A stretch of 64,000 nt of DNA, from NCBI GenBank assembly GCA_943357985.1, contig CALRGR010000001.1, forward strand, positions 14,731-78,730, read 5' to 3'. The translations under genes and the position numbers were made by a program. How positions within the stretch are numbered: position 1 is the first letter of the stretch; every line of letters starts with the position of its first letter. Positions 17,119 to 58,542 of the stretch are shown here, one piece after another. The notes beneath the pieces are model-generated. The model did no database searches and had not been told where the DNA came from. It saw nothing but the letters and a program-made list of their open reading frames with translations. This DNA comes from Candidatus Levybacteria bacterium GW2011_GWA1_37_16 (lineage in GTDB: Bacteria; Patescibacteriota; Microgenomatia; Levybacterales; UBA12049).

Positions 17119-17595
17119 ATGGCAAAGAAACAAACAAAAAAAATAGATGAGTCGCAAAAGAAAATTATAGAGCTTGAAGAGCAGGTTAAGAGAAGTTTGG
17201 CGGATTATCAGAACCTTGAAAAAAGAACGGCAGAAGAAAGAGGAAGTTGGATAAAAAAAGCAAATAAGGATTTAGTTTTAAGACTCTTGCCGGTTTTAGA
17301 TACATTAATGCTTGCAAATGCGCACGTACAAAATGAAGGTTTGATGTTGAGCATTAAACAATTTTTAGATATATTAAGAAATGAGGGAATTGAAAAAATA
17401 GAAACAGAAGGGCAGCTTTTTGACCCTGTGACAATGGAAGGAGTAGGCTTTGTAGAAGGAAACCCTTCGACAGGCTCAGGGCCATGGGAAGGAAAAGTAG
17501 TTAATGAAATAAGAGCAGGATTCAGATATAATGGTGAAGCAGTGTTAAGACCGGCACAAGTCCTTGTTGGTTCTGCAAAGCAGAACACAAATTGA
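17119..17595 (+). CDS. grpE: Nucleotide exchange factor GrpE
   Basis: LEEQVKRSLADYQNLEKRTAEERGSWIKKANKDLVLRLLPVLDTL is the GrpE coiled-coil/four-helix region. The ATG at 17119 is preferred over the TTG at 17107. Confidence 0.9.
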   Translation: MAKKQTKKIDESQKKIIELEEQVKRSLADYQNLEKRTAEERGSWIKKANKDLVLRLLPVLDTLMLANAHVQNEGLMLSIKQFLDILRNEGIEKIETEGQLFDPVTMEGVGFVEGNPSTGSGPWEGKVVNEIRAGFRYNGEAVLRPAQVLVGSAKQNTN

Positions 17596-17633
17596 CCATT
17601 TACTATTGACGATTGACTAATTAAATTAAAATT

Positions 17634-19574
17634 ATGGGAAAAATAATAGGAATAGATTTAGGAACAACAAATAGTGCAGTAGCTGTTATGGAGGGTGGAT
17701 CACCAAAAGTTATTCACTCTGCAGAAGGTCGTAATGTAATCCCATCTGTTGTTGACCCGATTTCTCATATTGTGGGAGATGTTGCAAAAAGACAATTAAT
17801 ATTAAAGCCTAAAACAACCATTTTTTCCATAAAGAGACTTATGGGAAAAAGATTTAAAGACGAGTCAGTTCAAAGGGACATGAAATGGCTTCCTTACACA
17901 GTTAAATCAGGTAGGGATGGAATGGCTGTTGTTGAAGTTGATGGAAAAACTCTTACTCCTCAGGAAGTATCAGCGGTAATTTTGCAAAAAATTAAAGCAG
18001 ATGCAGAAAGCTATCTTGGCGGAAAAGTAACACAGGCTGTAATTACAGTCCCTGCATATTTTGATGATTCACAAAGACAGGCTACGAAACAGGCAGGAGA
18101 AATTGCAGGCTTGGAAGTTCTGCGTATTATAAATGAACCGACAGCCGCAGCTTTGGCTTACGGACTTGATAAGAAAAATGCTCACACAATTGCAGTTTAT
18201 GATTTGGGTGGAGGAACTTTTGATATCTCAATTTTGGAGCTTGGAGAAGGAGTTTATGAAGTAAAGTCAACAAACGGAGATACACATTTGGGAGGAGATG
18301 ATTTTGATCAGGCAATTATTGGTTACCTTGCAGACGAGTTCAAAAAAGAAAATGATGTAGATTTAAGACGCGACCCACAGGCACTTCAAAGGCTACGTGA
18401 ATCTGCTGAAAAAGCAAAAATAGAATTGTCAACTTCGCAGGAAGCAGAAATTAACCAACCGTTTATAACTCAAGGAGCAAGTGGACCGCTTCATTTGACC
18501 ATGAAGTTAACCCGTTCAAAGATGGAGCAGATAGTTGATGATCTAATTGCCAAAACGATAAAGCCGGTTGAGCTGGCCTTAAAAGACGCAAAGTTAAAAG
18601 CAACTGATATTGATGAAGTGGTTTTAGTTGGTGGAATGACAAGGGTGCCAAAGATTGTTGAGGTAGTTACTAAATTCTTTGGTAAAGAGGTTAATAAGTC
18701 TGTTAATCCGGATGAAGTTGTTGCAATTGGAGCAGCAATTCAGGGCGGAGTTTTGGGCGGAGAAGTAAAAGATGTTTTGCTTTTGGACGTAACACCGCTA
18801 ACTTTGGGGCTTGAGACTTTGGGTGGAGTTTCAACACCTCTTATTGAAAGAAATACAACAATTCCAACCTCAAAATCTCAGATTTTCTCAACTGCTGCAG
18901 AGAATCAAACCCAAGTTGAAATAAATGTTTTGCAGGGAGAGCGTTCAATGGCAGCAGATAATAAGTCACTCGGACGTTTTGCATTAGACGGAATTCCACC
19001 TGCTCCAAGAGGAGTCCCGCAAGTTGAAGTTACATTTGATATTGATGCAAGCGGAATACTTTCTGTTAAGGCGGCAGATAAAGCAACGGGAAAAGAACAG
19101 AGCATTAAGATTACAGGTTCAACTGGACTTTCAAAAGAAGAAGTTGAAAAAATGCAAAAAGATGCAGAAGTTCATGCAACAGAAGATGCAGAGAAAAAAG
19201 AAAAAGTTGAAGTTAGAAACATGGCCGATTCTCTTATATTTACAGCAGAAAAAACCTTGAAAGATGCCGGAGACCTTTCGACAGGCTCAGGGCAAGTAAA
19301 GATTTCGGAAGAAGATAAAAAAGAGGTTGAAGAAAAAATTGCTGTACTTAAGTCAATTCTCGACACCGGCTCTAAGGAAGATTTGGAAACAAAAACTAAA
19401 GAACTATCGGACGCTTTACAAAAAGTAGGAGCGGCAATGTCCAGTCAAGGACAACAGTCAACTTCTAACGAACAACAATCAACGGAGGACAGCTCGGAAG
19501 AAAAATCCTCCTCCGATAAAGCTTCGGAGGACAAGAAGGACGAAGAGCCCGTTGAAGGAGAAGTAGTTAATTAG
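17634..19574 (+). CDS. dnaK: Chaperone DnaK (Hsp70)
   Basis: [22 protein letters not shown]...[12 protein letters not shown]...[18 protein letters not shown] are canonical Hsp70 motifs. Confidence 0.97.
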
Positions 19575-19607
19575 CGGATAGAGATTAGCGTATAGCGTAT
19601 AGTTTTG

Positions 19608-19627
19608 AGCGCGAAAGCGCTTTTTTA
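19608..19627 (+). terminator. Rho-independent terminator after dnaK (AGCGC-GAAA-GCGCT followed by T6)
   Basis: GC stem with a GAAA tetraloop and a U-tract, read from the sequence. Confidence 0.7.
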
Positions 19628-19640
19628 GTATAATATAACT

Positions 19641-20414
19641 ATGTTAGAACAAGGATTTTGGAAAATAGACCCACATGCCCATTCGATAAGGAGCGATGGA
19701 AGCATATCTCTAGTCGAACGCGCAACATTGGCTTACCAAGCAGGACTTGATGGATATGGAGAAACAGACCATGATGTTTGGGCAAGAGATGAAGAGCCAT
19801 ACGATGAACTAATCCCTCGCCTAAAAGGAGTAGAGGTCACAACAGGAATGGGGCACTTATTGGTATATGCGCCAAAAGGAACAGACCCAAAAAAAATTCC
19901 AATGGGATACTCTTTGGTAGAAACAGTTAGGAGAGTTCAGGGGGAGGGATACAAAGTAATAGTTCCTCATATGAATTTTGGCCCAATTCCTGCATCAGTG
20001 TCATTGAATGCCCTAAGAAGGTTATATGACGCCGGCTATTCTGTTAATGGGATTGAAGCAGAACATACTTTTTATACAAAAAAACATAGATCAAAAGCTA
20101 AAAGTGTAGCAAGAGAATTTAATATTGCAGAAGTTGGCACAGGAGATGATCATACAGGAAACATTGGAAGACGGTTTTATACTCTCATCCCGTGCGTTTC
20201 TAATGATCCAATTGCTGATTTTTATTTATCGCTTGAAAACAGAACAAGTGTACCAATTAAATCCGAATTAGATTTATTGCCTACGCCTTCTGGAAAAAAC
20301 GCCTTTCGTCATATTCGCGCGCTTTTTGTAGGATTACCAGCGAAAGTAATTTGTTTACCACGTTTTGCTCATACAGTAGCTCAATATTATATGGAGGAAT
20401 TACGAAGGAGATAA
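19641..20414 (+). CDS. PHP-domain (polymerase/histidinol-phosphatase family) metal-dependent phosphoesterase
   Basis: WKIDPHAHSIRSDGS...GYGETDHD His/Asp motifs are typical of PHP domains. The gene is inserted between dnaK and the dnaJ-like gene. Confidence 0.6.
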   Translation: MLEQGFWKIDPHAHSIRSDGSISLVERATLAYQAGLDGYGETDHDVWARDEEPYDELIPRLKGVEVTTGMGHLLVYAPKGTDPKKIPMGYSLVETVRRVQGEGYKVIVPHMNFGPIPASVSLNALRRLYDAGYSVNGIEAEHTFYTKKHRSKAKSVAREFNIAEVGTGDDHTGNIGRRFYTLIPCVSNDPIADFYLSLENRTSVPIKSELDLLPTPSGKNAFRHIRALFVGLPAKVICLPRFAHTVAQYYMEELRRR

Positions 20415-20417
20415 CCT

Positions 20418-21311
20418 ATGGCAAAAGATTATTATCAATCCTTAGGGGTTACAAAATCTGCATCTGCAGATGAGATAAAAAAAGCTTACAGAAAATTAGC
20501 GCTTCAATACCACCCGGACAGGAATAAATCTAAAGAGGCTGATGGAAAATTCAAAGAGGTAACCAAGGCTTATGAAGTTTTATCAGATGCGGGCAAGAAG
20601 CAGACGTATGACCAATATGGACATTCTGCTTTTGATCCTTCGGCAGGCTCAGGACCTTTTGGGCAGGGTGGACAACAGGGTGGTCGTTATGGTCCATTCA
20701 CATATTCTTATACGACTAACGGCGGAGGACCAGCAGAAGGATTTGATTTTGATTCTGGAGGATTTTCTGACCCTTTTGATATCTTTGAGCAATTTTTTGG
20801 AGGCGCAAATCCCTTCGGCGGAGCTCAAGCTCGCAGACGACAGACTTACTCTTTAACAATAGATTTTAAGGATGCTGTTCATGGCGCGGAGAAGAAAGTA
20901 ACTATTGGAGGTAAAACTCAAAATATAAAAATTCCGGCAGGAGTTGATAATGGTTCAAGAATGAGATTTGGAGATTTTGATGTTGTCTTTGAAGTAAAAG
21001 GAAATCCAAAATTTAAAAGAGAAGGAAATGACATAATCTCCGAGCAAGAACTTTCTTTTGCCGATGCAGCTTTAGGAATAGAAGCAGAAGTTGAGACGAT
21101 TCATGGAAAATTAAAAATAAGAATTCCTTCAGGAACGCAACCAAATACTGTTATTAGGCTTGGAGGAAAAGGTGTGCCAAATCTTAGGGGTTCCGGACAC
21201 GGCGACCATTATGTTAGAATAAAATTAGTTGTTCCTAAGAATTTAACATCCCGTCAAAAAGAGTTGCTCCGCGAGTTTGAAGGAACAAAAAATAAGAAAA
21301 CCTGGTTCTAA
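20418..21311 (+). CDS. dnaJ: DnaJ-class co-chaperone lacking the Cys-rich zinc-finger domain (type II/CbpA-like)
   Basis: A J-domain with HPD (YYQSLGV...[15 protein letters not shown]), a G/F-rich region and C-terminal substrate-binding domains. No CxxCxGxG repeats are present. Confidence 0.85.
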
Positions 21312-21675
21312 TGCAAAAATTAATTCTACAATCTATTTTTACCTTTTATCCGCAGTCGGCATCGTGCTTCTTATAATTGGAGTATTCAATAGTTTTCATT
21401 ATGTTGTTGGTATAACAGCCTATGATAAGTATCCACTAAAATATGGGAATGAATCCCGCTGTCAATACATGCCGATTCCTGCCAAGGAAATTAGCGCAGA
21501 AACACCAGCGGACACAGTGGATCAAGAAAAAGCTAAGAAAGAGTGCTTAGATAGTCTTGAAGTAGAGAGAAAAAATACAAAAGTTGATGATCTTGAAAAG
21601 TCAATTGCTTTTACAGTTATTGGTCTTTTAGTTTTTGCTTCTCATTTCTACTTCGCCCGCAAACGAGTGAGTTAG
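21277..21675 (+). CDS. Small hypothetical membrane protein; the start is uncertain and overlaps the dnaJ-like gene end
   Basis: The ORF has an N-terminal and a C-terminal TM helix, with a middle part rich in charged residues. Confidence 0.3.
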
Positions 21676-21745
21676 ACATTTTCAGACTAATGCTCGCTCG
21701 CAATTAACTAAAAGCTATACGCTATTCTCTATACGCTGCCTATCA

Positions 21746-21774
21746 TTGAAGCCGAGCCTCAATTCTGATATACT
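21746..21774 (+). promoter_or_regulatory. Putative nusA promoter (TTGAAG, 17 nt, TGaTATACT extended -10)
   Basis: Hexamers read from the sequence. Confidence 0.45.
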
Positions 21775-21783
21775 AGCGAAACT

Positions 21784-22920
21784 ATGCCAGCAGTTCAAAG
21801 AAGAAGTGAATTTGAGTTAGCATTAAATCAAGTCGCCAATGAAAGGGGCGTTGATGTATCCGTCGTTTTAGATACAGTTAAAAACGCAATTTTGGCAGCC
21901 TATAAAAAAGATCATCCTGAAGCTGAAGTTGAAGAATATGAAGCAACTTTAGATAGAAATACAGGAGAGGCAAAAATTTTTAACAAAGGTAAAAAAGACG
22001 TAACGCCTCCGGGATTTGGAAGAATTGCGGCCCAAACTGCAAAACAGGTAATACTTCAAAAAATCCGTGAAAAAGAGAAAGAAGCAATTCTTACAGACTA
22101 TAAAGGAAAAGTAGGGGCAATAGTAAATGGGATGGTTTTAAGATTTGCAGGGCCAAATATTATTGTAGATATTGGAAAAACAGAAGCTCTAATGCCGCCT
22201 CAAGAGCAGATTCCAAATGAAAAATATCATTTAAATCAAAGACTTACGGTTTATATTCTTGACATTAGAGAAGGGATAAAGGGCGAAGAAATAATTGTTT
22301 CAAGGGCAAATAGTGGACTTATTGAAGGGCTTTTCAAAAGAGAAGTTCCGGAAGTAGCACAGGGAAGTGTTGTTATAAAAGAGATAGCGAGAGAGCCGGG
22401 AAGTAGAACTAAGATTGCAGTTGCTTCAAATCAGAGCGGAATTGATCCTGTTGGAAGTTGTGTTGGCCAAAAAGGAGTAAGAATCCAAGCAATCATTGCG
22501 GAATTTTCCGGTTTTGAGAAAATAGATGTTATTCAATGGCATGAAAATCCAAAAAATTATATTGCTCAGTCTTTGTCTCCTGCTAAAAATGTAGAAGCTA
22601 CGGTTGATGAGAAAAGCAAAACTGCCCATGTTATCTTACCTAAAGAGGAGTTGTCACTTGCTATTGGAAAAGAAGGACAAAATGTCCGTCTTGCATCAAA
22701 ACTTACTGGATACAGAATTGAAATAGAAGGAAAAGAGGAGGAGATTTCAGAAGCTGCTGGTAGCACTTCGCACGTTTTAGATGACTCTCAGCCAGCTCCA
22801 GTGGAAGCACCAAGCTCAGAACCCGTTTCCAGTTCATCTGAAAGTGAAAATGTTCCCGTCGTCTCCAAAGCAAATGAAGAAGAAGTAAAGAAAGAAGAAG
22901 TTCAAGCTAGTCAGTCTTAA
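21784..22920 (+). CDS. nusA: Transcription termination/antitermination factor NusA with an acidic Ser-rich C-terminal tail
   Basis: NusA N-terminal domain, S1 and tandem KH regions (GAIVNGMVLRF..., GSRTKIAVASNQSGIDPVGSCVGQKGVRIQAI). The tail reads EAAGSTSHVLDDSQPAPVEAPSSEPVSSSSESE. Confidence 0.9.
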   Translation: MPAVQRRSEFELALNQVANERGVDVSVVLDTVKNAILAAYKKDHPEAEVEEYEATLDRNTGEAKIFNKGKKDVTPPGFGRIAAQTAKQVILQKIREKEKEAILTDYKGKVGAIVNGMVLRFAGPNIIVDIGKTEALMPPQEQIPNEKYHLNQRLTVYILDIREGIKGEEIIVSRANSGLIEGLFKREVPEVAQGSVVIKEIAREPGSRTKIAVASNQSGIDPVGSCVGQKGVRIQAIIAEFSGFEKIDVIQWHENPKNYIAQSLSPAKNVEATVDEKSKTAHVILPKEELSLAIGKEGQNVRLASKLTGYRIEIEGKEEEISEAAGSTSHVLDDSQPAPVEAPSSEPVSSSSESENVPVVSKANEEEVKKEEVQASQS

Positions 22921-22952
22921 GCTATGAGAACTTCTTTGTCTTATCAAAAAAT

Positions 22953-24413
22953 ATGGATAAAAACTCAGATAAATCTACAACTTCAGATTCTTTGATAGTT
23001 CCCGTTGTTGCAGTACTGGGTCACGTAGATCACGGAAAAACCACACTTCTTGATGCAATAAGGAAAACCGATATTGCAAGTCGCGAGCATGGGGGAATTA
23101 CTCAGAGTATTGGTGCCTCAAAAATAGAACTTGTCCATGAAGGAAAGAAACGATTTATAACTTTTATTGATACGCCTGGACATGAAGCCTTTGCAAAAAT
23201 GAGAGGAAGGGGCGCACAAGCTGCGGATTTGGCTCTTCTTATTGTTTCTTCCGTTGATGGAGTAATGCCACAAACAAAAGAGAGTATCCAAATTATAAAA
23301 GCAGCAAAAGTTCCTTTTATTGTAGTTTTGACCAAATCCGATTTACCTGATAAAAATATTGAAATGGTAAAACAGCAATTGGTAAAAGAGGAAGTAATGA
23401 TTGAGGGATACGGTGGAGATGTTCCTGTTATTGAAGTCTCTTCAAGGAAAGGTGACAACATAAAAGAACTTTTGGATTTAATTTTGCTTGTTATGGAAAT
23501 GTCAGGAGAGAAAAAAGGATCCGAAAATGGAGAGCTTGAGGCTATTATTATTGAATCAAGGCTTGATCAAAAGTCAGGCCCAAAAGCCACCGTTGTTGTT
23601 AAAAATGGAACTTTAAATGTAAGAGATGAGGTTTGGGCAGGAGACGCAAAAGCAAAAATAAGAGCCTTGATTACAGATAAAGGAGATCAGGTTAAAAGTG
23701 TGACCATTGGGGAAGCGGTTGAAATTTTGGGGTTTGAAAAAGTTCCGCCAGTTGGATCCGTAGTTCATAAAGGCTTTATCACGTCAACAATACAGACTGA
23801 AGCAACTCAAGAGCCTGCAGCGTATAATCCAAATTTTTCAGAGCAGGAGCATCCTGTTTCAATTATTCTAGCAGCAGACACTCAAGGTTCTCTTGAAGCA
23901 CTTTTAAATGCTTTGCCGCCTGAGATAAATATTGTTCTTGCAAAAACCGGCGATATTTCTACTGCAGACGTATTGCTTGCAAAACCAACAAAGGCATTAG
24001 TTATCGGTTTTAATAAAAAGATTTCCGGTGATGTTGCAAATCTGGCAAGAACAGAGAAAATAATTGCTAAAAATTATAATCTAATCTATGAATTAATAGA
24101 TGAATTAAAAGACGCACTTGTTGGTAAGAAGCTTTCATTTGAAGAAAAGATATTCGGTGTCGCACAAATTCTGGCATCTTTCCCATTTGATAAACAAATA
24201 GTTATTGGAATTAAAATAACAGACGGCAGAATTGCAAAGGGAGATAAAGTTAGAATTGTCAGAGGGGAAAATATTATTGGAGAGTCATCGGTTACATCTC
24301 TTAGGCAAGGGAAGAATACCCTCTCTAAAGTAGAAGGGGGTCAGGAAGCGGGAGTAATACTTTCTCCCCAAATTGACTTTAATGTTGGCGATATGCTAAT
24401 ATCCCATGACTAA
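22953..24413 (+). CDS. infB: Translation initiation factor IF-2 (short form without the N-terminal extension)
   Basis: [22 protein letters not shown]...DTPGHEAF G-domain, followed by the IF2 beta-barrel and C-terminal domains. Confidence 0.9.
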   Translation: MDKNSDKSTTSDSLIVPVVAVLGHVDHGKTTLLDAIRKTDIASREHGGITQSIGASKIELVHEGKKRFITFIDTPGHEAFAKMRGRGAQAADLALLIVSSVDGVMPQTKESIQIIKAAKVPFIVVLTKSDLPDKNIEMVKQQLVKEEVMIEGYGGDVPVIEVSSRKGDNIKELLDLILLVMEMSGEKKGSENGELEAIIIESRLDQKSGPKATVVVKNGTLNVRDEVWAGDAKAKIRALITDKGDQVKSVTIGEAVEILGFEKVPPVGSVVHKGFITSTIQTEATQEPAAYNPNFSEQEHPVSIILAADTQGSLEALLNALPPEINIVLAKTGDISTADVLLAKPTKALVIGFNKKISGDVANLARTEKIIAKNYNLIYELIDELKDALVGKKLSFEEKIFGVAQILASFPFDKQIVIGIKITDGRIAKGDKVRIVRGENIIGESSVTSLRQGKNTLSKVEGGQEAGVILSPQIDFNVGDMLISHD

Positions 24414-24415
24414 AC

Positions 24416-25498
24416 ATGAATGAGCCTAGCTTTTCTCAAGCAAGAGAACTTATTGATAATAATGAAGCCATTGGAATAGTTGTTGGAAAAAATCCCAACA
24501 CGGATGCGATGGGGGCCGCTCTTGCTCTATATTTATCTCTCCAAGCCTCCGGTAAGAAAGTTTTCATAGCATCTGCAACACAGCCTATTGTAGAACTTTC
24601 AAATCTTGTTGGAATTGATAAAGTTAAGGATAGCTTTGAGGGAGAAGGCGGGGATTTGATAGTATCTTTTCCTTACAAAGAAGGAGAAATAGATAAAGTT
24701 TCCTATACTCTTGAAGAAGGTTTTCTTAATATTGTTGTAAAGCCCGGAGAATTAGGACTTTCTTTTACGGAACAGGATGTAATCTATAGAAGAAAAGGAC
24801 AGTATCCGGGACTTATTTTTACAGTTGGAGTGCCTAGAATTTCTGACCTTTCCTCTGTTTTTGACATAAGTGCTTTAAAAGATACCCAAATTATTAATAT
24901 AGATAACGGTGCGGAAAATCAGGGATATGGGGACGTAGTTATTATTGACCTTAACTCTTCTTCTGTTTCTGAACAAGTTACAAAACTTATAGTATCTTTA
25001 GGATTTGAGATAGATTTGGATGTTGCTCAAAACTTATTTTCTGGAATCGCACAGGGTACAAGCAACTTTCAGGATATAAGTACATCTCCTCAAGCTTTTG
25101 AAATGGCTGGAATGCTTATGAATAAAGGCGCAATTAGGCAAAGAGTTGAAAGAATGGAAAAAACTATTCAGTCTCAGGAAGAAAATTTATTTGAACCCCA
25201 AAATCCGGGAGAAGTATTACAACAACTGTCTCAAATACAAGGATATCGTGGACAGCAACAAAAGAGATTTGAGAATAAGGGAACCCGCTTGCAATCGCCT
25301 CGCGGCGCATCTAGTGGCGGGCAGGGAAATTTCCCTCAAAAAGTACAACAAAATCAATTAAGACCACAAAAGCAAGAGCAACCTCAATCTCAGGAGCAAA
25401 CCCAAAACCCAGACCTGCCTGTCGGCAGGCAGGATCTTAAAAATCCACCCGAAGAATGGCTTACGCCAAAAGTTTACAAAGGTTCCACCAACGTCTAG
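24416..25498 (+). CDS. NrnA-like DHH-family protein with degenerate catalytic motifs and a Gln-rich low-complexity C-terminal tail
   Basis: It aligns with NrnA, but motif I DPD has become NPNTD (VGKNPNTDAMGAAL) and motif III DHH has become DNG (NIDNGAENQGYGDV). No GGGH DHHA1 motif is present. The tail contains QQQKRFENKG...QKQEQPQSQEQTQ. Confidence 0.6.
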   Translation: MNEPSFSQARELIDNNEAIGIVVGKNPNTDAMGAALALYLSLQASGKKVFIASATQPIVELSNLVGIDKVKDSFEGEGGDLIVSFPYKEGEIDKVSYTLEEGFLNIVVKPGELGLSFTEQDVIYRRKGQYPGLIFTVGVPRISDLSSVFDISALKDTQIINIDNGAENQGYGDVVIIDLNSSSVSEQVTKLIVSLGFEIDLDVAQNLFSGIAQGTSNFQDISTSPQAFEMAGMLMNKGAIRQRVERMEKTIQSQEENLFEPQNPGEVLQQLSQIQGYRGQQQKRFENKGTRLQSPRGASSGGQGNFPQKVQQNQLRPQKQEQPQSQEQTQNPDLPVGRQDLKNPPEEWLTPKVYKGSTNV

Positions 25499-25509
25499 TA
25501 AATCTACTC

Positions 25510-39250: not shown

Positions 39251-41140
39251 CTAAACATTCGCGTAAATTCTTCTAAGGCCGCGCCCAAGATTTTCCTGCT
39301 TAAATATAGTAAACCTTTTTAGCTCTCCTGTAAAATTAACATGAGGCCCGCCACAAAACTCCTTAGAATAAGCCTCTTGTGGTGAGCTTGTCGAACCACC
39401 TATAAAATAAACTTTCACATTATCCTCATATTTTTCATCAAAGAGTCCAATGGCTCCAATATCTTTTGCTTTTTCAAGTGGAAGCATTTCAAAATGAACA
39501 GGTAAATTCTCTTTAATCTTCTTATTTATGATTTCCTCGATTTTTTTAACTTCTTCTTCCGTCAGGGCTTTATCGTAATTAAAATCAAATCTTACACGCT
39601 GCGAGGTTATGTTAGATCCGGCCTGATGAATATGATCTCCCAGTACGTCACGAATTGCCTGGTGAAGTAAGTGAGTTGCTGTATGTCCCATTATAGTTTG
39701 CGTATTTGTGTCGGCAAGTCCGCCAGCAAATTTTTGCGCAGCACCTTCTCTTGAGAGTTTTTGGTGTTCTTCCATTTTGTTTGCAAATGCCCGGTCGTCA
39801 AAAGTGTAACCAAGACTCTTAATTTGCGAAGGAGATAATCCATGCGTTGAATATAAAATGAAAGCATCTTCTGCTGAAATTTTTGATATTCCCATAAGTT
39901 CATCTCCAACCTTCCTGCTCGCCTCGCTTCGAAGCGGGCCGGCAGGCAGGGGCGGATATTTTTTGTGCATAAATTCTTTAGCTTTTTTTTGAGTTTGATT
40001 GTAACTTTGCTGTTCTTCTAAAATTACATTTTTTATTTTTTCAAAATCTTTCGCTAGTTTTCCATCTGTATTTTTATATTGCTCAACGATAATCTTTATG
40101 ATTGGGGAGATATCGGAAGATTCAAGTTGGAATAAACTATCTAAGCTTCGTCTTAAAAGTCTTCTCAAAATATACCCTTGCTCTTTGTTTGATGGAATAA
40201 CGCCGGCAGAAATTATAAACGAAGATGCTACGAAGTGATCTGCGATAATTCTTATCTTTTCTTTATTTTCGTCGTATGTTTTTCTTGTAATTTTTTCGAT
40301 AGTTTTAATAACAGGACTAAGCAGAGATGTTTGAAAAATGTCATTTTGATTTTCCGTTGCTGCTAATAATCTTTCGAGTCCTCCGCCAAAATCAACGTTT
40401 TTTTGTGGAAGTTCAACAAATGATCCATCTGATTTTTTTTGATATTGCATAAAAACTGAGTTTCCAATTTCTAGATATCTTCCACAATCACAATTTGTAT
40501 GACACTTTTGTCCAAACTTTTTGTCATGCTCTGTTTCAAAATCAAAAAATATTTCTGTGTCTGGTCCTCCGGGTTCGCCGGCCGGCATATTTTGGGGAAG
40601 TCCCGCTCTTGACCACCAATTCTTATCAACTCCATAAAAAGAAATTTTTTCGCGTGCATCAAGTCCTGCTTTTTCAAAAATTTCTTTCCAGATTTCATAA
40701 GACTCGTTGTCTTTTTCAATATCATTAAAACCATTAAAAATGGTTACGTATAATTTTTCTACGGGGAGTTTTAACCTATCTGTTAAAAATTCCCAAAGCC
40801 ATGGGATTTGTTCTGCTTTAAAATACCCGCCTCGACTCGTTGTCTTTTGCGAGGCGGGCTTTCCCAAAGACCAGTTGCCTAGCATTCTAAAAAAGGTTGT
40901 ATGTCTGTTGTCTCCAATTTCTTCAATGTCTTGTGCCCTAAAACAATTTTGTACATTAACAAGTCTTTTGCCTGCAGGATGTTTTCCTCCTAATAAATAT
41001 AGAACAAGAGGTTGCATCCCGGAACTGGTAAATAAAGTTGTTGGATCATTTTCCGGAACTAGTGAAGAGTTTGGAATTCTAATATGATCGCGGCTTTCAA
41101 AGAATTTAATATACTTTTCAATAATTTGCGAGGCTGTCAT
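39251..41140 (-). CDS. alaS: Alanyl-tRNA synthetase (catalytic plus editing domains, lacking the C-Ala domain)
   Basis: LFTSSGMQP...RLVNVQNCFRAQDIEEIGDNRHTTFFRMLGNWS class II motifs. HTATHLLHQAIRDVLGDHIHQAGS is the editing-domain zinc site. Confidence 0.9.
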   Translation of the reverse strand: MTASQIIEKYIKFFESRDHIRIPNSSLVPENDPTTLFTSSGMQPLVLYLLGGKHPAGKRLVNVQNCFRAQDIEEIGDNRHTTFFRMLGNWSLGKPASQKTTSRGGYFKAEQIPWLWEFLTDRLKLPVEKLYVTIFNGFNDIEKDNESYEIWKEIFEKAGLDAREKISFYGVDKNWWSRAGLPQNMPAGEPGGPDTEIFFDFETEHDKKFGQKCHTNCDCGRYLEIGNSVFMQYQKKSDGSFVELPQKNVDFGGGLERLLAATENQNDIFQTSLLSPVIKTIEKITRKTYDENKEKIRIIADHFVASSFIISAGVIPSNKEQGYILRRLLRRSLDSLFQLESSDISPIIKIIVEQYKNTDGKLAKDFEKIKNVILEEQQSYNQTQKKAKEFMHKKYPPLPAGPLRSEASRKVGDELMGISKISAEDAFILYSTHGLSPSQIKSLGYTFDDRAFANKMEEHQKLSREGAAQKFAGGLADTNTQTIMGHTATHLLHQAIRDVLGDHIHQAGSNITSQRVRFDFNYDKALTEEEVKKIEEIINKKIKENLPVHFEMLPLEKAKDIGAIGLFDEKYEDNVKVYFIGGSTSSPQEAYSKEFCGGPHVNFTGELKRFTIFKQENLGRGLRRIYANV

Positions 41141-50445: not shown

Positions 50446-50456
50446 TACATACTCGT

Positions 50457-50951: not shown

Positions 50952-50952
50952 T

Positions 50953-51426: not shown

Positions 51427-51697
51427 AGTCTCACTTGTCTAAATCTTACTCTTAGGTATTTAATAGAAGCATGAATACAGAAACCCCACATAATATAACT
51501 ACTTAGGAAATTTTTGTTGATCGATGGGTTGCTCGTGAGATAGCTAGGAATGGTAAACCACTAAGGATAGTTAATCCTACCTTGAGACTTGTCTATCAAC
51601 ATGAGGCTATAAAGTCCGTTGGGACTAGTCGAAGAGGTTCAAGTTAAAACACAGACCGAAAAGTTATAGAATTTCCTACGCCCTTGGTCTAAACGTA

Positions 51698-52300
51698 TTA
51701 TTCTACACTGACTTCTAGGATTTTGTCGCCGACAACTATATTTTTTACTACGTCCATTCCTTTTGTAACTTTTCCAAAAATTGTGTAATTGTTCGGCAAG
51801 GCATTATCTGCAAGCATTATAAAAAACTGGCTGCCGTTTGTATTAGGCCCGGAATTTGCCATAGCAACTACGCCCTCTTTATAACCTGCTTTATAACTTG
51901 GCGTATTTGGATTTAATTCATCTTCAAATTTTGCTCCATAGATTGAAGTTCCTCCGGTTCCATTTCCATTTGGGTCTCCGCCTTGGATTACAAAGTTTGG
52001 TTCAACGCGGTGGAAAGTTAAATTATTGTAATATCCTCTTTTTGACAGTGTTGCAAAATTTGTGACTGTTTTAGGCGCATCCTGCGGATACAATTCTATC
52101 TCGATAATGCCCTTTGCGGTGGTTATTGTCGCTTTCTTCGCGGAAATAAAATCATTTGGAGTTGGGGTTGGTGTGGGAGTTGTAGTTGTCATGTTTGTTA
52201 AATCCGCTTGACTTGGTTTAATACTTTGGTTGCCAAGCATGGCTACTCCAAAATATCCTAGAATCGCTACTGCCAAGACTATAATAACAGCTTTCATCAT
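51698..52300 (-). CDS. ppiB: Cyclophilin-type peptidyl-prolyl cis-trans isomerase with an N-terminal membrane anchor
   Basis: FHRVEPNFVIQGGDPNGNGTGGTSIYG...FFIMLADN are cyclophilin motifs. The probable start is MMKAVIIVLAVAILGYFGV at 52300; the ORF track extends to 52438. Confidence 0.8.
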   Translation of the reverse strand: MMKAVIIVLAVAILGYFGVAMLGNQSIKPSQADLTNMTTTTPTPTPTPNDFISAKKATITTAKGIIEIELYPQDAPKTVTNFATLSKRGYYNNLTFHRVEPNFVIQGGDPNGNGTGGTSIYGAKFEDELNPNTPSYKAGYKEGVVAMANSGPNTNGSQFFIMLADNALPNNYTIFGKVTKGMDVVKNIVVGDKILEVSVE

Positions 52301-52350
52301 TTGATACTTTGTTATTTTGCCAGAAATAAAAATCAATTTCAATAGCCTAA

Positions 52351-52379
52351 TTGATTGAGTACGGCTAGTGTGGTATAAT
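52351..52379 (+). promoter_or_regulatory. Putative promoter upstream of fusA (TTGATT, 17 nt, TGgTATAAT extended -10)
   Basis: Hexamers read from the sequence. Confidence 0.45.
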
Positions 52380-52386
52380 TTTTGTG

Positions 52387-52417
52387 TCTTCCCGCAAGAT
52401 CTGGGGAAGATTTTTTT
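52387..52417 (+). terminator. Terminator- or attenuator-like hairpin TCTTCCC-N10-GGGAAGA followed by T7, 21 nt before the fusA start
   Basis: Perfect 7-bp GC-rich stem with a U-tract on the plus strand only. Confidence 0.5.
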
Positions 52418-52438
52418 CATCCAAAGGATGATTGACAT

Positions 52439-54556
52439 ATGGCTGCAACAAACAGAAATTTTACATTAGATAAAATTAGAAATATTGGTATTATTGCCCA
52501 CATTGATGCGGGTAAAACTACAACTACGGAACGTATCCTTTATTACACAGGAAAAACCTACAAAATCGGAGATATTGATGAAGGAAATACTCAGATGGAC
52601 TGGATGGAGCAGGAAAAAGAGCGTGGTATTACTATTGTATCTGCTGCTACAACCGCTTTTTGGAAAGAGCACAGAATAAATATTATAGACACCCCAGGAC
52701 ACGTTGACTTTACAGCAGAAGTTGAAAGGTCACTTAGAGTTTTGGATGGTGGAATTACAGTTTTAGACGCAGAAGAAGGAGTTCAATCCCAATCTGAGAC
52801 TGTCTGGAGACAGGCAGATAAATATAAAGTTCCAAGACTTTGCTTTGTAAACAAAATGGATAAGCTTGGAGCTGATTTTTTGGCAACAATAAAAAGTATT
52901 GAGGATAGGCTTGGTGCAAATCCCGCAATTATGGTCTTGCCAATTGGAGTAGAGCATACTTTTAAGGGAACAGTAGATCTTCTAACTCAGCAATGTTTTA
53001 TTTGGGGATCGGATGATTTGGGAGCAGAATTTGAAACAACAGATAAGATTCCAGAAGATATGAAAGCTCAAGTTGCAGAGTACCGCAGCAAGCTTATTGA
53101 AAAAATTGCAGAAACAGATGACGCACTCCTCGAGAAATATTTGGCAGGAGAGGAGCCAAGCGTAGATGAATTAAGAGCAGCGCTAAGACGTGCAGTTATT
53201 GCCTATAAATTAGTTCCAATTTATGCAGGATCTTCCCTTCGCAACAAAGGTGTTCAGCCACTTTTGGATGCTGTTATTGACTACCTTCCTTCTCCTTTAG
53301 ATACCTCGTCTGCAAAGGGAAATGGAATAAATCCTAAAACAGGTGAGGTAGTTGAGAGAGCGCCTGATCCAAAAGGACCCTTTGCTGGGCTTGCTTTTAA
53401 AATTCAAATAGATCCTCATGTAGGAAAACTTACATATTTTAGAGTTTATTCAGGAACATTTGAATCCGGTTCTTATATTTACAATAGCTCAAAAAATACA
53501 AGAGAAAGAGTCGGCCGTATACTTTTAATGCACGCAAACACAAGAGAAGAAATAAAAGAAGCAACAGCCGGGGAAATTGTTGCTTTGGTTGGACTAAAAG
53601 AAACAACAACCGGAGATACTCTTTGTGATGAGGCAAATCCAATAGTTTTGGAAAAAATTACATTTCCTGAGCCAGTTATCTCTCTTGCAATTGAGCCTAA
53701 AACAAAGTCAGACCAAGAGAAACTCGGGTTTTCTCTTAAAAGACTTATGGAAGAAGATCCAACTTTTACTGTTAAAACAAATCATGAGACAGGACAGACA
53801 ATTATCTCAGGAGTCGGAGAACTTCAGCTTGAAATTATGGTTGATAGAATGAAAAGAGAATTTGGAGTTTTGGCAAATGTTGGAGCGCCTCAAGTTGCTT
53901 ACAAAGAAACTATTGCACAGGAAGCGCAAGCCGAAGGAAAATATATTAAGCAAAGTGGTGGACGCGGACAATATGGGCATTGTTTCCTTCGAGTTACACC
54001 AAAGCCCCGTGGTGAAGGATATGAATTTGTCAATGCAATTAAAGGCGGAGCAATTCCTGCTGAATTTATAAAAGCGGTTGCCAAAGGTATTGTTGAGGCT
54101 ATGGAAAACGGAATTCTTTTGGGATATCCCTTGGTAGATATGGCAGTTACATGTTATGACGGAAGCTATCATGATGTTGATTCATCTGAAATTGCTTTTA
54201 AAATTGCTGCATCTCAAGCTCTTCAAGCAGCAACCAGAAAAGCAGAGCTAAGACTTTTGGAGCCTATTATGAAAGTTGAAGTTACAACTCCATCTCAATT
54301 TTTAGGAGATGTGATTGGAGATCTGTCTGCAAAAAGAGGACAAATTATTAGCACAGAAGAAAGAAGCAAGGCGACGATTGTTTTAGCATCTGTTCCTCTT
54401 GCAGAGCTTTCTGGATATGCAACGACACTTAGAAGCATGTCTCAAGGTCGTGCTTCTTACTACATGGAGCCATCGCATTATCAAGAAGTCCCACAAAATA
54501 TAGTAGCGGAAATGCTTGAAAAGTCTACATTTACAGGCCGCATCAACGCCCAGTAA
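52439..54556 (+). CDS. fusA: Elongation factor G
   Basis: [23 protein letters not shown]...DTPGHVDFT...; conserved along its full length. Confidence 0.97.
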
Positions 54557-54593
54557 TAACCTCGTTTGTGTTTTGCCTAAGAAATATCCTATA

Positions 54594-55562
54594 ATGGCTT
54601 TTATGGCGCAAATTCACGAAATTGGTCCTCGGATTGACGCAACACATTCTCCAATTACCACAGACGTTACGCTTGAAGAAATATCTAGAATTGTTAGACC
54701 AGGTTCTTTCGATAGGATACATGAAATATTTTATGAGTTAGGAGCTATTCCTCGAGGTGAACAATTAGTGTTTAATAATCCACCTATAAAGCATGAGAGA
54801 GGAGGAAAAGTTTCTGGTTTTGTGTATCCTTATCAAAGAGATCATGGAGAAAATGAATTGCTGGTATCATGGGGGCAAGCTACTAAACGGAGCTTGCCGC
54901 ATTTTCATTTACATCCCGACGGTATAACTGATGTAAGTGAGATATATCATTGGGTTGATGGTAAAGCAAAATTAAATATGGAGGGAGATGAAGTTGATCT
55001 AAGCGAAGAAAATCCAGTTGTGATTGTTCCTCCGGGGGTTAAGCATCAACTTAGCACAGACAATTTTTCTCTCACTGTTATAGAAATGGTAAATATAGCG
55101 AAGATTCCAGAAGAAGATCGGCATAGAGGTCCAAAAGAAGTTCTAATCTCTTCTGAATTGCACCGGGCAATAGGAGTTGATTTCCGCGATGATGTGAAAT
55201 GGGCAATAGGAGGGGTAGCTGAGGATAGAGAATTTAACGAACCTTTATATCGGTATGATGGACAAGACCATATATTTATTTTTGAAGGAATTTTAGGCAA
55301 TCAGTATGTTGAAGCATTTATTCTTCCTCCTAATAGCGAAGTTAATCAGCGCGAAAGAAAAAAATTCAGACAATATCGTGTAATAAGAGGCAAGATGACC
55401 TTGGACATAGACGGAAAATTTCAGGAAGTCGATGCTGTTGATGCTAAATCCGTTCCATCAGATCAACATAGAATATATACAAGCGACAAGCCCGCATTAA
55501 TTATTAGTAGATCGATAATTGGTCCCTCTATCAAAAAAGAACCAAGGCATTTGGATCATTGA
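54594..55562 (+). CDS. Cupin-domain protein (probably bicupin)
   Basis: Cupin motif 1 PHFHLHPDGITDVSEIYHWVDG and motif 2 VVIVPPGVKHQL. The start ATG at 54594 is after the fusA stop; the ORF track starts at 54516, inside fusA. Confidence 0.5.
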   Translation: MAFMAQIHEIGPRIDATHSPITTDVTLEEISRIVRPGSFDRIHEIFYELGAIPRGEQLVFNNPPIKHERGGKVSGFVYPYQRDHGENELLVSWGQATKRSLPHFHLHPDGITDVSEIYHWVDGKAKLNMEGDEVDLSEENPVVIVPPGVKHQLSTDNFSLTVIEMVNIAKIPEEDRHRGPKEVLISSELHRAIGVDFRDDVKWAIGGVAEDREFNEPLYRYDGQDHIFIFEGILGNQYVEAFILPPNSEVNQRERKKFRQYRVIRGKMTLDIDGKFQEVDAVDAKSVPSDQHRIYTSDKPALIISRSIIGPSIKKEPRHLDH

Positions 55563-55608
55563 CCATTTTACCCGCACTTATACCCTCAGAGCAAGTAAGA
55601 GCTATTAG

Positions 55609-55797
55609 ATAGAATTTTATCTTTATTCTGATAGTAGCTATAAGGGTTGGGAAACAGCAAAGCATGCAGCCGAAAGAACAATACGTGTAGTCTCTCATAT
55701 TATGGATGACAATGTTGGGAAAACCGTAGCAATTATTGGACATGGAGCAGTCGTGTCTAGACCGCGATACATTGAGAACGGTTTAAGTACAAATTAA
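55609..55797 (+). pseudogene. C-terminal remnant of a histidine-phosphatase (phosphoglycerate-mutase family) gene
   Basis: The frame reads ...AAERTIRVVSHIMDDNVGKTVAIIGHGAVVSRP..., which matches the conserved C-terminal block of PGAM-family enzymes (...GKTVLIVSHGGVIRAL). There is a stop upstream at 55606 and no N-terminal catalytic RHG region. Confidence 0.45.
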
Positions 55798-55819
55798 AGG
55801 AGCTTACAGTGGCTCGTAT

Positions 55820-56229
55820 ATGCGAGCCTACACAATACTTCCAGTTAATGTTATTCGTACTGCCGATCTTTCAAAGATGCTCTTAAGAGACTATACTGGA
55901 TGGATTGGTACCAAGCTCATGGTAAGAATGCCGAAGGTACCTGTAGGCATTTTGGTATCTCCAAAAGTGTATTTTACCGCTGGAAGAATCGATACAAGCC
56001 CTACAATCTTAAAACCCTTGAGGATGACAAGAGCAGCAGAAGACCACATAAAGTGCGGGAGATGACAACAGCACCAGCTGTTCTTGCGCGTATCTATGAT
56101 ATTCGCTTTCTCGATCGGGAGAAGAGTAAGTACGAAATCCAGGAAGAGCTAAAACGGGAAGGTATTATCTGTGGCCGCTCAGCAATCCAGAAGGTTATTA
56201 ACCGCCATGGAAAACTTCTTCGTATTTAA
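55820..56229 (+). mobile_element. Truncated, frameshifted IS481-family-like transposase N-terminal (HTH) fragment. There is no DDE core and no recognisable terminal inverted repeats.
   Basis: ORF 55900-56229 reads DWYQAHGKNAEGTCRHFGISKSVFYRWKNRYKP...SRRPHKVREM..., typical of the IS481/IS3-type N-terminal HTH (RHFGVSRSTFYKW..RY). The likely N-terminus (LPVNVIRTADLS...) lies in a different frame at 55820-55899. Nothing integrase-like follows. Confidence 0.5.
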
Positions 56230-56671
56230 AAGGTAATCAAAGCGAACAAGAGTACGCCAAAGGTGTTTTAGATTTCTATGAGGGTCTTGGTCTAGATCGG
56301 GATCAAATTTTGACTTTGGCTAAGCAGCAAAATGAAGCGACTGTGCCTGTACCGGCCCAATAGATAAACTTCCAGTTAAAAAATCGGTGTAAAATGGAAT
56401 TAGATGCAACCCTTTCTAATTTTTTTTGGCGAACTTGTCTTTCTGTTTTTTCTTTCCAAAATTTTAATCGCGGATTTGGGCCAGCTGCTGCTTAGAGTAA
56501 CTAAAAGCAGGAAGTGGTCTATATATATTCTTTCGTTTTTGTTTTTGCCCGGTACCGCCCATGAAATTAGAACAGAAAGCTTTGCATTAAATATAATCAT
56601 AATGAGAAATGTAACTTCTATTCCTAAGGATCGTAGACACATTTCTGTATAAAGTCGTTGTATTTTCCCTC

Positions 56672-56700
56672 TTGACGCAGGCATATAAATGTTGTATATT
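56672..56700 (+). promoter_or_regulatory. Putative tuf promoter (TTGACG, 17 nt, TATATT)
   Basis: Hexamers read from the sequence, 38 nt upstream of the tuf ATG. Confidence 0.45.
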
Positions 56701-56737
56701 AAATTAAGCCTTTTTGAGAGGTTTTTATTTTTAATAT

Positions 56738-57925
56738 ATGGCAGAAGCAGCAAAATATCAAAGAACAAAACCACATTTAAATATTGGTACCATTGGTCAC
56801 GTTGACCATGGAAAGACCACATTAACCGCAGCTATTACAACCGTTCTTTCTAAAAAGGGAATGGCGACAGCTAAAAAATATGAAGATATTGATAATGCTC
56901 CAGAGGAAAGAGCTCGTGGAGTTACTATTAATATTTCCCACCAGGAATACGAAACAGAAAAAAGACACTACGCTCACATTGACGCTCCAGGTCACGCAGA
57001 TTATGTTAAAAACATGATTACGGGTGCCGCTCAAATGGACGGTGCAATTCTGGTAGTTTCTGCTCCAGACGGTCCAATGCCTCAGACAAGAGAGCATATT
57101 TTACTTGCACGCCAGGTTGGAGTTCCTTCAATTGTAGTTTTCCTTAACAAATGCGATATGGTTGACGACGAAGAGCTTTTAGATTTGGTTGAAATGGAAA
57201 TCCGCGAACTTCTTACAAAATACCAATACCCGGGAGCTGAAACACCAATTATAAGAGGTAGTGCTCTTAAAGCTTTAGAGGGCGACCCAGAAGCAGAAAA
57301 ACAGATTATGGCACTTATGGATAAGGTTGACGAATATATTCCAACCCCAGTAAGAGACACAGATAAGCCATTCTTGATGCCTGTTGAAGACGTTTTTTCA
57401 ATTAAAGGACGCGGAACAGTTGTAACCGGAAGAATTGAAAGAGGAAAGATTAAAATAAACGAAACAGTTGAAATTGTTGGAATTAAAGCCACAAAATCTT
57501 CTGTTGTAACAGGAGTTGAAATGTTTAAGAAACAACTTGAAGATGGTCAAGCCGGAGACAATGTTGGACTTTTGCTCCGTGGAGTTGAAAAAGCAGATGT
57601 AGAACGTGGACAAGTTATCGCAAAACCAGGAAGCATTACTCCTCACACAGACTTTGAAGGAGAAATTTATATCTTGGCAAAAGAAGAAGGCGGACGTCAC
57701 ACACCTTTCTTTACAGGATATAGACCTCAATTTTATATCAGAACAACTGATGTAACAGGAGAAGTAACTCTTCCAACAGGCGTTGAAATGGTTATGCCAG
57801 GAGACAATACAAAAATGACTGCAAAGCTTATAGTGCCAGTTGCTTTGGAAGAAGGAGTTAGATTTGCAATTAGAGAAGGCGGAAAAACAGTTGGAGCAGG
57901 TGTTATTAGCAAGATACTCAAATAA
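56738..57925 (+). CDS. tuf: Elongation factor Tu
   Basis: [20 protein letters not shown]...[26 protein letters not shown]...; conserved along its full length. Confidence 0.98.
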
Positions 57926-57936
57926 GCTCGGAACAC

Positions 57937-57994
57937 GATCTGAAGGTTTGCTCACATGGGCTTAGTCCTGAGCTTGCCGAAAGATCTTTTTTTT
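57937..57994 (+). terminator. Complex GC-rich hairpin region ending in T8 downstream of tuf. It contains the reverse-oriented copy of the 19-nt GC motif (57965-57983).
   Basis: GATCT...AGATC outer stem with an inner GCTCA-N14-TGAGC stem, then TTTTTTTT. Confidence 0.55.
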
Positions 57995-58032
57995 GCTAAA
58001 ATGCACATTACGCACTTTAAAAGGAGAAGCAT

Positions 58033-58341
58033 ATGCCAAAAGGAAGAATTAGAGTAAGACTAAAAAGTTACGACGCAAGGGTGATAGACCTTTGTTCTCA
58101 GCAAATTTTAGATACGGCAATAAGAACCGGAGCTAAAATCGTGGGCCCGGTACCTCTTCCAACCAGGCGAACAGTTTATGCAGTTAACCGCTCTCCTTTT
58201 ATAGATAAAGACGCACGTGACCACTTTGAAATGCGTGTCCACAAAAGACTTATTGATATAGTTTCCCCAACAGACAAAACAATTGATTCTTTAACCCACC
58301 TAGAACTCCCCGCCGGAGTTTCTATTGAGATCCGCATGTAG
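58033..58341 (+). CDS. rpsJ: 30S ribosomal protein S10
   Basis: [41 protein letters not shown]... Confidence 0.95.
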
Positions 58342-58455
58342 TCTTCTCCTAGCCTTGTTCTCTATTGCAATTAGGCAGGAGTTTAGATATAATTACCCTA
58401 GTTTAAGTCATGATAAACCTAAAGGAGGTTCCTTTGACTACATAAAGCTCATTTT

Positions 58456-58505
58456 TAGGAAAGTATTTTCCTGAAAACACGGCGGCTCTATGTAGCCGTT
58501 TTTTT
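58456..58505 (+). promoter_or_regulatory. Structured leader between rpsJ and rplC. Hairpin AGGAAA-gtat-TTTCCT at 58456-58471, then terminator-like hairpin ACGGC/GCCGT with T7 at 58479-58505.
   Basis: Read from the sequence. The rpsJ-rplC spacer is 200 nt, whereas the other ribosomal genes in this cluster are separated by 0-50 nt. Confidence 0.45.
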
Positions 58506-58542
58506 GGTTTTATCCTTCGGCAGGCTCAGGACTTAGTAAGAT

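Follow-up and report, generated by a model that had tools for sequence, protein, structure and literature searches.

REP and REPIN elements, whose enzymes are the RAYT (TnpA-REP) proteins of the HUH-Y1 type, are short GC-rich imperfect palindromes that are dispersed through genomes, lie mostly between genes and frequently form inverted doublets; they are at times found in frame within genes that stay intact (PMC3733652, PMC6006769), and their empty sites are seamless, with no target duplication. Here we describe a GC-rich repeat unit of about 24 nt that resembles them in these respects, its position between genes and its doublets being features of GC-rich genomes, and of which six solo copies, four of them inside genes, are found in a 64-kb stretch of a Candidatus Levybacteria genome (the window, that is, the whole stretch analysed). 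The unit also differs from REPs in several ways. The GT[AG]G/CGTC tag (PMC3733652, PMC6006769) is missing: the feet of the unit are RYCCT / AGGRC or CCGTTC / GAACGG, and the GTGG that can be read in it is just one of several stem variants. Its recognition information apparently resides in an invariant 11-nt loop rather than in stem and foot, and this loop is common to several phyla, whereas REPs are normally lineage-specific. The unit is moreover very small, its copy number in the window is low, and no cognate RAYT was found for it in the loci searched. As it has neither the tag nor a demonstrable cognate RAYT, we refer to it as REP-like and not as a member of the REP family.

Three other kinds of described element invite comparison. 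Rickettsia palindromic elements (RPEs) are, as the unit probably is, selfish palindromic DNA found in frame in housekeeping genes of a reduced genome, where they add loop-like peptide segments (PMC3733652, PMC1779305); however, they are about 100-150 bp long and confined to Rickettsia, whereas the unit, at 24 nt, shows no relation to them in sequence and is spread over many phyla. Some short RPE-4/6 elements are CGTC REPs. In-frame insertion of the RPE type into functional genes was found here for DnaK, GrpE, alanyl-tRNA synthetase (AlaRS) and EF-G. DNA uptake sequences (DUS in Neisseria, USS in Pasteurellaceae) are likewise over-represented short words that also occur in coding sequence, in tolerated frames and variable segments, and that form inverted pairs near gene ends; but they are duplex words without stem covariation, number about one per kb and are lineage-specific, none of which is true of the unit. 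Miniature inverted-repeat transposable elements share with it that they are non-autonomous, short and dispersed, may be transcribed and may sit in genes, but at 70-300 bp they carry terminal inverted repeats and target-site duplications, and the unit has neither. Intrinsic terminators, finally, combine a GC-rich stem with a loop of 3-8 nt followed by a T-run, whereas the loop of the unit has 11 nt.

Copies in the window and structure of the unit

A preliminary description of the window had reported five occurrences of a 19-nt GC-rich motif. We counted matches to CCTTCGRCAGGCTCAGGRC with at most three mismatches, using 100 shuffles of the window as control, and found five matches where 0.03 were expected; five were reached in none of the 100 shuffles. 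Both this search and a reading of the sequence confirm the reported positions:

17464-17482, + strand: core motif, grpE copy
19275-19293, + strand: core motif, dnaK copy
20637-20655, + strand: core motif, dnaJ copy
57965-57983, - strand: core motif, copy in the tuf-rpsJ spacer
58514-58532, + strand: core motif, copy in the rpsJ-rplC spacer

The open reading frames (ORFs) near these copies are hrcA, grpE, dnaK, an unannotated ORF of 257 aa and dnaJ and, later in the window, tuf, rpsJ and rplC. Three further claims of the preliminary description also proved correct. The dnaJ and rpsJ-rplC copies contain one identical 21-mer, ATCCTTCGGCAGGCTCAGGAC; the copies in grpE, dnaK and dnaJ are all read in one frame, TCG RCA GGC TCA; and the codons used are rare, as TCG makes up 6% of the Ser codons of this window (38% GC), and GGC and GGG make up 13% and 10% of its Gly codons. 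A second search, with the central 11-mer and the flanking stem left free, revealed a sixth copy in alaS on the - strand, which has the exact loop but a different, compensated stem and is read in the same frame as the other coding copies. All five copies originally listed are thus real, but the list was incomplete. The six copies cluster modestly along the window (p about 0.03), and the boundaries of the element are ambiguous by 1-3 nt.

The 19-nt motif is the core of a GC-rich hairpin repeat unit of about 24 nt, for which the consensus in the Levybacteria lineage is CCT TCG RCA RGC TCA GGR CAA GWR. Across 127 copies from other genomes, the base preceding the motif covaries with R18 (C-G 66, T-A 36, C-A 20, T-G 3; Fisher p = 2e-13). 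The same is seen in 85 further copies that were chosen by the loop alone, in a search that left stems unconstrained: the inner stem pairs swap freely among UA, CG and GC, the covariation score is 0.358 compared with 0.190 in shuffles (reached in 0 of 500), and 57.8% of cells are paired compared with 32-41% in slid controls. Covariation in both sets of copies indicates a hairpin, in which a stem of 4-5 covarying base pairs (up to 11 in some copies) encloses an invariant 11-nt loop, TCGRCARGCTC; the unit is therefore an imperfect palindrome of the short-hairpin kind that is typical of REPs. Within the window, the stem is GTGGT/ACCAC in the alaS copy and YCCT/AGGR in the others. G-U pairs are rare in the stems, so that covariation alone does not favour a reading in which the structure forms in RNA only.

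RNA folding, which the preliminary description had suggested as a check, did not predict stable hairpins for the window copies (z-scores -1.5 to +2). A stable RNA hairpin or intrinsic terminator was rejected on account of the 11-nt loop and these weak predicted folding energies; a terminator scan made no call on the units, its sole call being a neighbouring hairpin at 58481-58500. No Rfam family was matched at the gathering threshold by the window or by 12 motif-rich loci, and an Rfam E-value search with a doublet returned a chance microRNA match only. The unit and its common tail also seem to resemble the 5' end of bacterial 16S rRNA, in the region of the 27F primer: ATCCT/TCGACA/GGCTCAGGACGAACG compared with GATCCT-GGCTCAGGACGAACGCTGG (window 20631-20655, family consensus). 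The likeness, which may be coincidence, amounts to an exact match over 15 nt and 5 further nt on the other side of a 6-nt gap.

Filled and empty sites in genes and spacers

Six solo units have been acquired recently in this AT-rich genome. Four are in-frame units in GrpE, DnaK, DnaJ and AlaRS, in variable and probably surface-exposed loops, and each adds or overwrites about eight codons with the reading P/G-S-T/A-G/S-S-G/P-Q; the other two lie in spacers:

17461..17487, + strand: in-frame grpE block AAC CCT TCG ACA GGC TCA GGG CCA TGG (N-P-S-T-G-S-G-P-W), net +8 codons
19275..19298, + strand: in-frame dnaK insertion of 24 nt, CTT TCG ACA GGC TCA GGG CAA GTA (L-S-T-G-S-G-Q-V), within a C-terminal lid loop
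20635..20655, + strand: dnaJ segment of 21 nt, ATCCTTCGGCAGGCTCAGGAC (D-P-S-A-G-S-G), a same-length replacement in the G/F region
39374..39397, - strand: sixth copy, in frame in alaS, 24 nt, GGT TCG ACA AGC TCA CCA CAA GAG (G-S-T-S-S-P-Q-E), stem GTGGT/ACCAC
57965..57985, - strand: non-coding copy in the tuf-rpsJ spacer, ATCTTTCGGCAAGCTCAGGAC, overlapping a -35-like TTGCCG
58512..58532, + strand: non-coding copy in the rpsJ-rplC spacer, ATCCTTCGGCAGGCTCAGGAC

The preliminary description had raised the question whether the coding copies are lineage-specific insertions, and comparison with orthologues gave a different answer for each of the three chaperone genes. For DnaK they are: LSTGSGQV is absent in 119 of the 119 nearest homologues (81-90% identity; those with a source name are labelled Candidatus Levybacteria, Microgenomates, in the candidate phyla radiation), and a codon-level DNA alignment with two related loci (L122 and L123; loci from other genomes are given L numbers) supports an insertion of 24 nt. 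For GrpE the gain is real but had been misplaced, as it lies in a loop of the C-terminal domain and not at the C-terminus; L122, L329 and L330 have a single codon at the insertion point, so that the window shows a net gain of eight codons, which the codon-level alignment likewise supports, and the segment aligns with an eight-residue loop gap in T. thermophilus GrpE 3a6m. DnaJ shows no insertion. Here an E-Q-G-A-G-Q-G segment has become D-P-S-A-G-S-G with length unchanged; some 10 of the 21 nt are substituted, while the flanks on both sides are conserved. The pattern DPS[AT][GS]SG occupies this DnaJ site in 16 of 120 relatives, with a patchy distribution, and is lacking in the closest DnaJ relative (P0242, 89% identity).

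One alternative is that the motif recurs by chance, reflects convergent selection on an S-T-G-S-G peptide or is an artefact of assembly or contamination. Gly/Ser-rich loops are indeed common, and the DnaJ G/F region is already motif-like. However, chance is opposed by the 0.03 matches expected, and convergence by the existence of non-coding copies, by the conservation of rare codons across copies and by covariation of the stem at the nucleotide level. As to an artefact, eight contigs drawn from NCBI, ENA and Logan assemblies encode an identical insert-bearing DnaK protein, and all three operon copies recur in L121, which comes from another run. This alternative is effectively refuted.

The 257-aa ORF between dnaK and dnaJ (19641-20414, + strand) has a PHP-like N-terminal motif, DPHAHSIRSDGS, and gave no Pfam match. 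It is absent from three relatives: in L122 and L123 dnaJ comes straight after dnaK, and in L329 the two are separated by a gap of only 68 nt.

The alaS copy lies in a hot spot of Levybacteria AlaRS, VYFIG/../YSKEFCGGPHV, that is empty in 48 of 120 relatives and filled in the other 72. On a neighbour-joining tree of 120 taxa, this distribution needs at least 34 state changes, and a second AlaRS hot spot, KKY/../GDELMG, needs at least 23. Some of the inserted peptides (PSAGSGQEA, GSTSSPQEA, PSTSSGRP) translate the unit perfectly, and from these the series grades continuously into degenerate sequence. Between the window and L325 (90% aa identity) the flanks of the site are identical while the variants differ, the window having GGT..ACA AGC..CCA and L325 having CCT..GCA GGC..GGA with a CCT..AGG stem; four of the six changes are compensatory stem swaps. 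L327, at 74% identity, has 27 nt identical to those of L325 although adjacent synonymous sites have diverged, L326 has a seamlessly empty site and L328 a nested, expanded unit. EF-G gives a similar picture at TTAFW/../RINIID, where L124 and L135 have a unit in frame and L183 has a decayed copy; the site is empty in the window. The net gain at filled sites is 24 nt (27 nt in two EF-G copies), and comparison of filled with empty sites revealed no target duplication and no terminal inverted repeats. Thus, the unit is gained, lost and overwritten precisely and without target duplication, its sites are reused in different lineages, and its copies decay after insertion.

The second AlaRS hot spot, where relatives have units of the PSAGSGQV type or nothing, is taken up in the window by a 48-nt in-frame block, PPLPAGPLRSEASRKV (39908-39955, - strand), which is 73% GC and strongly self-complementary (folding energy predicted at -28.6 kcal/mol for the block with 6 nt of flank on each side). 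Part of this block belongs to a second family of GC-rich palindromes, CCTGCCTG[CT]CGGCAGG(CAGG), with nine matches, both strands counted, compared with 0.12 expected. This family has CGGCAGGC in common with the main motif, encodes L-P-A/V-G in three ORFs and fills the mid hot spot of AlaRS in L326 (ELPAGRKEG). Members were noted at these positions:

220-239: second palindrome family, window
25414-25433: second palindrome family, window
39935-39950, - strand: second palindrome family, window
8181-8196: second palindrome family, window, weaker
L135:9320: second palindrome family, relative
L147:11096: second palindrome family, relative
L326:3398: second palindrome family, relative
L330:8584: second palindrome family, relative

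The two spacer copies had been described as abutting terminators on either side of rpsJ, as an inverted pair. The first point stands for the rpsJ-rplC copy, which begins 11 nt past the terminator-like hairpin at 58481-58500 and ends 10 nt before the start codon of rplC. It does not stand for the tuf-side copy, as L124 (about 87% nucleotide identity) has an ordinary, different tuf terminator stem at that very position. Nor is a functional pair supported, because L124 has no tuf-side copy at all, and the tuf-rpsJ spacers of L156 (- strand) and L021 (+ strand) contain independent single copies in either orientation.

The neighbourhood of rpsJ is variable in other respects. The rpsJ-rplC spacer of the window (58342-58542) is 200 nt long and has a promoter-like site at 58365-58393, and the same junction in L124 (6135-7420) extends over ~1.3 kb, in which two ORFs, of 182 and 190 aa, lie on the reverse strand. 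Just upstream of rpsJ, at 57984-58010, lies a T-rich block, GTTCTTTGA / GATCTTTTTTTTGCTAAAATGC, that is partly common to L124, L125, L127, L132 and L156; it might serve the S10 operon as a boxA-like or promoter element. Farther upstream, a cyclophilin-type peptidyl-prolyl isomerase gene on the opposite strand (51698-52438, -) separates rpsG from fusA, and a cupin-like ORF of 348 aa (54516-55562, +) separates fusA from tuf; the usual order of the str operon is thus interrupted.

The genes next to the copies raise the question of a functional cis-element, that is, an RNA or DNA site through which a regulator, an RNase or a small RNA would coordinate chaperone and ribosomal operons, for example via the HrcA regulon or via mRNA stability. 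The copies do occur in highly expressed operons (dnaK, S10, tuf), with the modest clustering given above, and most are in sense orientation; a CIRCE-like operator precedes hrcA, and the rpsJ-rplC copy places an AGGA 11 nt ahead of the start codon of rplC. Yet the same operons lack copies in close relatives, copies at orthologous sites undergo decay, other phyla have the unit as a high-copy repeat between genes, and its predicted RNA hairpins are unstable and match no Rfam family. The hosts, moreover, include alaS here and fusA, xseB and an apparently PKD-like gene in other genomes. We therefore regard a cis-regulatory role as very improbable. The specific link with the HrcA regulon that had been proposed is an accident of three matches in one operon, grpE-dnaK-dnaJ, and an HrcA-regulon signal was rejected, as hosts lie outside the regulon, close relatives lack the copies and the CIRCE is separate. 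That CIRCE-like inverted repeat, TTAGCAGTC-N9-ACTGCTAA, lies at 16308-16334 (+), 15 nt upstream of hrcA, which makes it plausible that the operon is under HrcA control independently of the motif; the motif itself is unrelated to the CIRCE/HrcA operator TTAGCACTC-N9-GAGTGCTAA.

The family in other phyla, plasmids and viral contigs

A scan of one genome per species matched at least 120 loci, compared with ~35 matches expected by chance in the whole collection under a uniform-composition model and up to ~100 at 65% GC. The taxonomic names of many of these loci are the labels of metagenome-assembled genomes (MAGs), and they cover Alpha-, Beta- and Gammaproteobacteria, Chloroflexota/Dehalococcoidia, Acidobacteriota, Cyanobacteria, Bacteroidota, Planctomycetota, Saccharibacteria, Peribacteria and others. 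Among the matches listed, 70 copies are extended by a tail, GAACGG, and in many CCGTTC stands in front of the unit, giving a 33-nt hairpin CCGTTC...GAACGG. Inverted doublets were found in L106, L077 and L045, tandem arrays with a period of exactly 24 nt in L119 and L001, and up to seven copies in 8 kb in GC-rich genomes. Copies also lie between genes on annotated plasmids and chromids, with up to 20 per Sphingobium chromid and further examples in Comamonas and Moraxella osloensis, and a scan of viral contigs yielded at least 120 viral loci. The family is thus dispersed over many bacterial phyla and viral contigs, is mostly intergenic in GC-rich genomes, and constitutes REP-like dispersed DNA.

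A plasmid oriT or nic site was considered and rejected, as the Moraxella plasmid copy lies between a histidine kinase gene and narL. Pfam has no family for the translated repeat arrays. Full-text literature searches with the motif, its halves and its translated peptides returned nothing relevant, and a literature search found no description specific to the candidate phyla radiation (CPR); in the REP classification papers and one supplement there was only a loose likeness to the Pseudomonas REP GTGGTGAGCGGGCTTGTCGAA.

Coding copies are found outside Levybacteria as well. XseB in L113, from a genome of 44% GC, ends with two tandem in-frame units (about 7724-7770), PSTSSGQAPSTGSGQA, and viral contig L301 encodes a large protein, of phage or gene-transfer-agent type, with DAPSTGSGQG; in-frame tolerance therefore reaches beyond CPR. 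In a Saccharibacteria MAG, a protein of 1482 aa that appears PKD-like by eye has W-N-F-G-D ahead of the unit.

The motif might instead be a DNA uptake signal, with preferential uptake in transformation and spread of motif alleles among relatives by homologous recombination. Such a process would explain the same-length replacements in dnaJ and the tuf-rpsJ spacer and the patchy distribution of filled alleles among relatives, and the coding copies of the Haemophilus USS are likewise confined to tolerant frames and variable loops. However, the stem varies and yet stays complementary, which points to a single-strand structure and not to a duplex word; the density is 10-100 times below that of known uptake sequences; one loop occurs in unrelated phyla and viral contigs; and 24-nt tandem arrays and inverted doublets exist. 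In L327, furthermore, the element is identical while adjoining codons have diverged, so that a recombination tract would have to coincide with the element. An uptake or recombination signal is for these reasons unlikely. Of the options offered by the preliminary description, stem covariation, low density and decay at orthologous sites disfavour both an uptake signal and an RNA target, while a small sequence-specific insertion element tolerated in frame fits the eight-codon insertions in DnaK and GrpE and the dispersed family.

Origin of the in-frame units

We conclude, with a probability of roughly 0.7, that the unit is a miniature REP-like repeat of about 24 nt, selfish or neutral, that is spread by a hairpin-specific mechanism and filtered to a Gly/Ser reading frame. 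All full-length coding copies in long ORFs are in the TCG-RCA-RGC-TCA frame, whereas the other frames of the unit give LRQAQG, FDRLR, ALSLSK, PEPVEG or a stop codon. That the S-T/A-G/S-S frame is used almost to the exclusion of the others is best accounted for if selection favours a flexible Gly/Ser linker where loops are tolerant, and we infer that the units are selfish or neutral DNA and not a regulatory signal.

Transposases of the HUH/Y1 class (IS200/IS605-RAYT type) leave no scars when they excise and insert (PMC6006769), and in-frame REPs inside genes, including housekeeping genes, have been described (PMC3733652, PMC6006769). By analogy, the unit may spread as a single-stranded hairpin that an HUH/tyrosine (RAYT-like) enzyme acting in trans would peel and paste; alternatively, or in addition, non-allelic conversion from other copies could be involved. 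A mechanism of this kind would insert, excise and overwrite the unit precisely and without target duplications. Because its length is a multiple of three, the reading frame would be kept automatically, and selection would retain only those copies whose frame and orientation yield a flexible linker of Gly and Ser in loops that tolerate it. Inserted copies would then decay to ordinary loop sequence, leaving loop indels in housekeeping proteins. The invariant loop, the stem conserved in pairing only, the seamless empty sites, the doublets and the arrays all fit enzymes that act on single-stranded DNA hairpins, and copy-conversion would account for the swap of variants in alaS and for the unchanged length of the segments replaced in dnaJ and the tuf spacer.

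Several observations weigh against a REP-like repeat spread in this way. A tblastn search with E. coli RayT, which covered ~0.9 Mb of Levybacteria-related DNA as well as the other loci examined, gave no significant match, with the exception of a Y1-like ORF in L059. No gene family recurs beside the copies in all-versus-all clustering of ORFs from 120 genome and 120 viral loci, the clusters near copies being unrelated housekeeping or phage head genes only. The unit lacks both forms of the tag, GT[AG]G and CGTC, of classified REPs, its window hairpins are thermodynamically weak as RNA, and its density in Levybacteria is low, at roughly one copy per 10-100 kb (about 10 copies in 0.77 Mb of relatives). 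The dnaJ and tuf-rpsJ copies resemble same-length replacements, which simple transposition does not predict, and the patchy occupancy of hot spots could stem partly from inter-lineage recombination or repeated loss. At one AlaRS hot spot there are antisense-like short sequences (LPKG/LPAG), so that the orientation bias is not absolute.

The L059 ORF (4245-5084, from a Sideroxydans MAG) encodes 279 aa with an HUH-like NHYHIVV motif and a weak match to RayT (tblastn E = 0.002). It lies 3 kb from a motif copy and is not flanked by copies, and its plasmid homologues occur in replicons that are not motif-rich.

A more far-reaching version of the argument can be offered only tentatively. The unit might be a pan-bacterial nano-element, the 11-nt loop of which would be read by a broadly conserved or phage-borne single-stranded DNA enzyme that writes, erases and overwrites eight codons at preferred sites. 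In CPR such an element would serve as a templated source of Gly/Ser insertions in the loops of essential proteins (DnaK, GrpE, DnaJ, AlaRS, EF-G), and the reuse of sites and swapping of variants would reflect targeted copy-conversion and not random transposition.

The feature itself is real and is most likely a miniature palindromic repeat that also inserts in frame, and its interest lies in its occurrence in essential genes of CPR, in the dynamics of the hot spots and in the loop shared across phyla. The units can mislead alignment, phylogeny and gene-calling in MAGs, as their translations (PSTGSGQ, LRQAQGER, PFDKLRANG, VRPELVEG and the like) fill spurious ORFs. Invariance of the loop across phyla is unusual for REP-like repeats and points to a conserved or horizontally mobile recognition partner; high-copy hosts that can be cultured include Sphingobium, Comamonas and Moraxella. 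If our interpretation is true, selfish DNA sitting in frame within genes, which is known from Rickettsia and a few REP-rich species, would also be a feature of CPR/Patescibacteria, and it would provide a concrete source for lineage-specific loop insertions in the housekeeping proteins of CPR.

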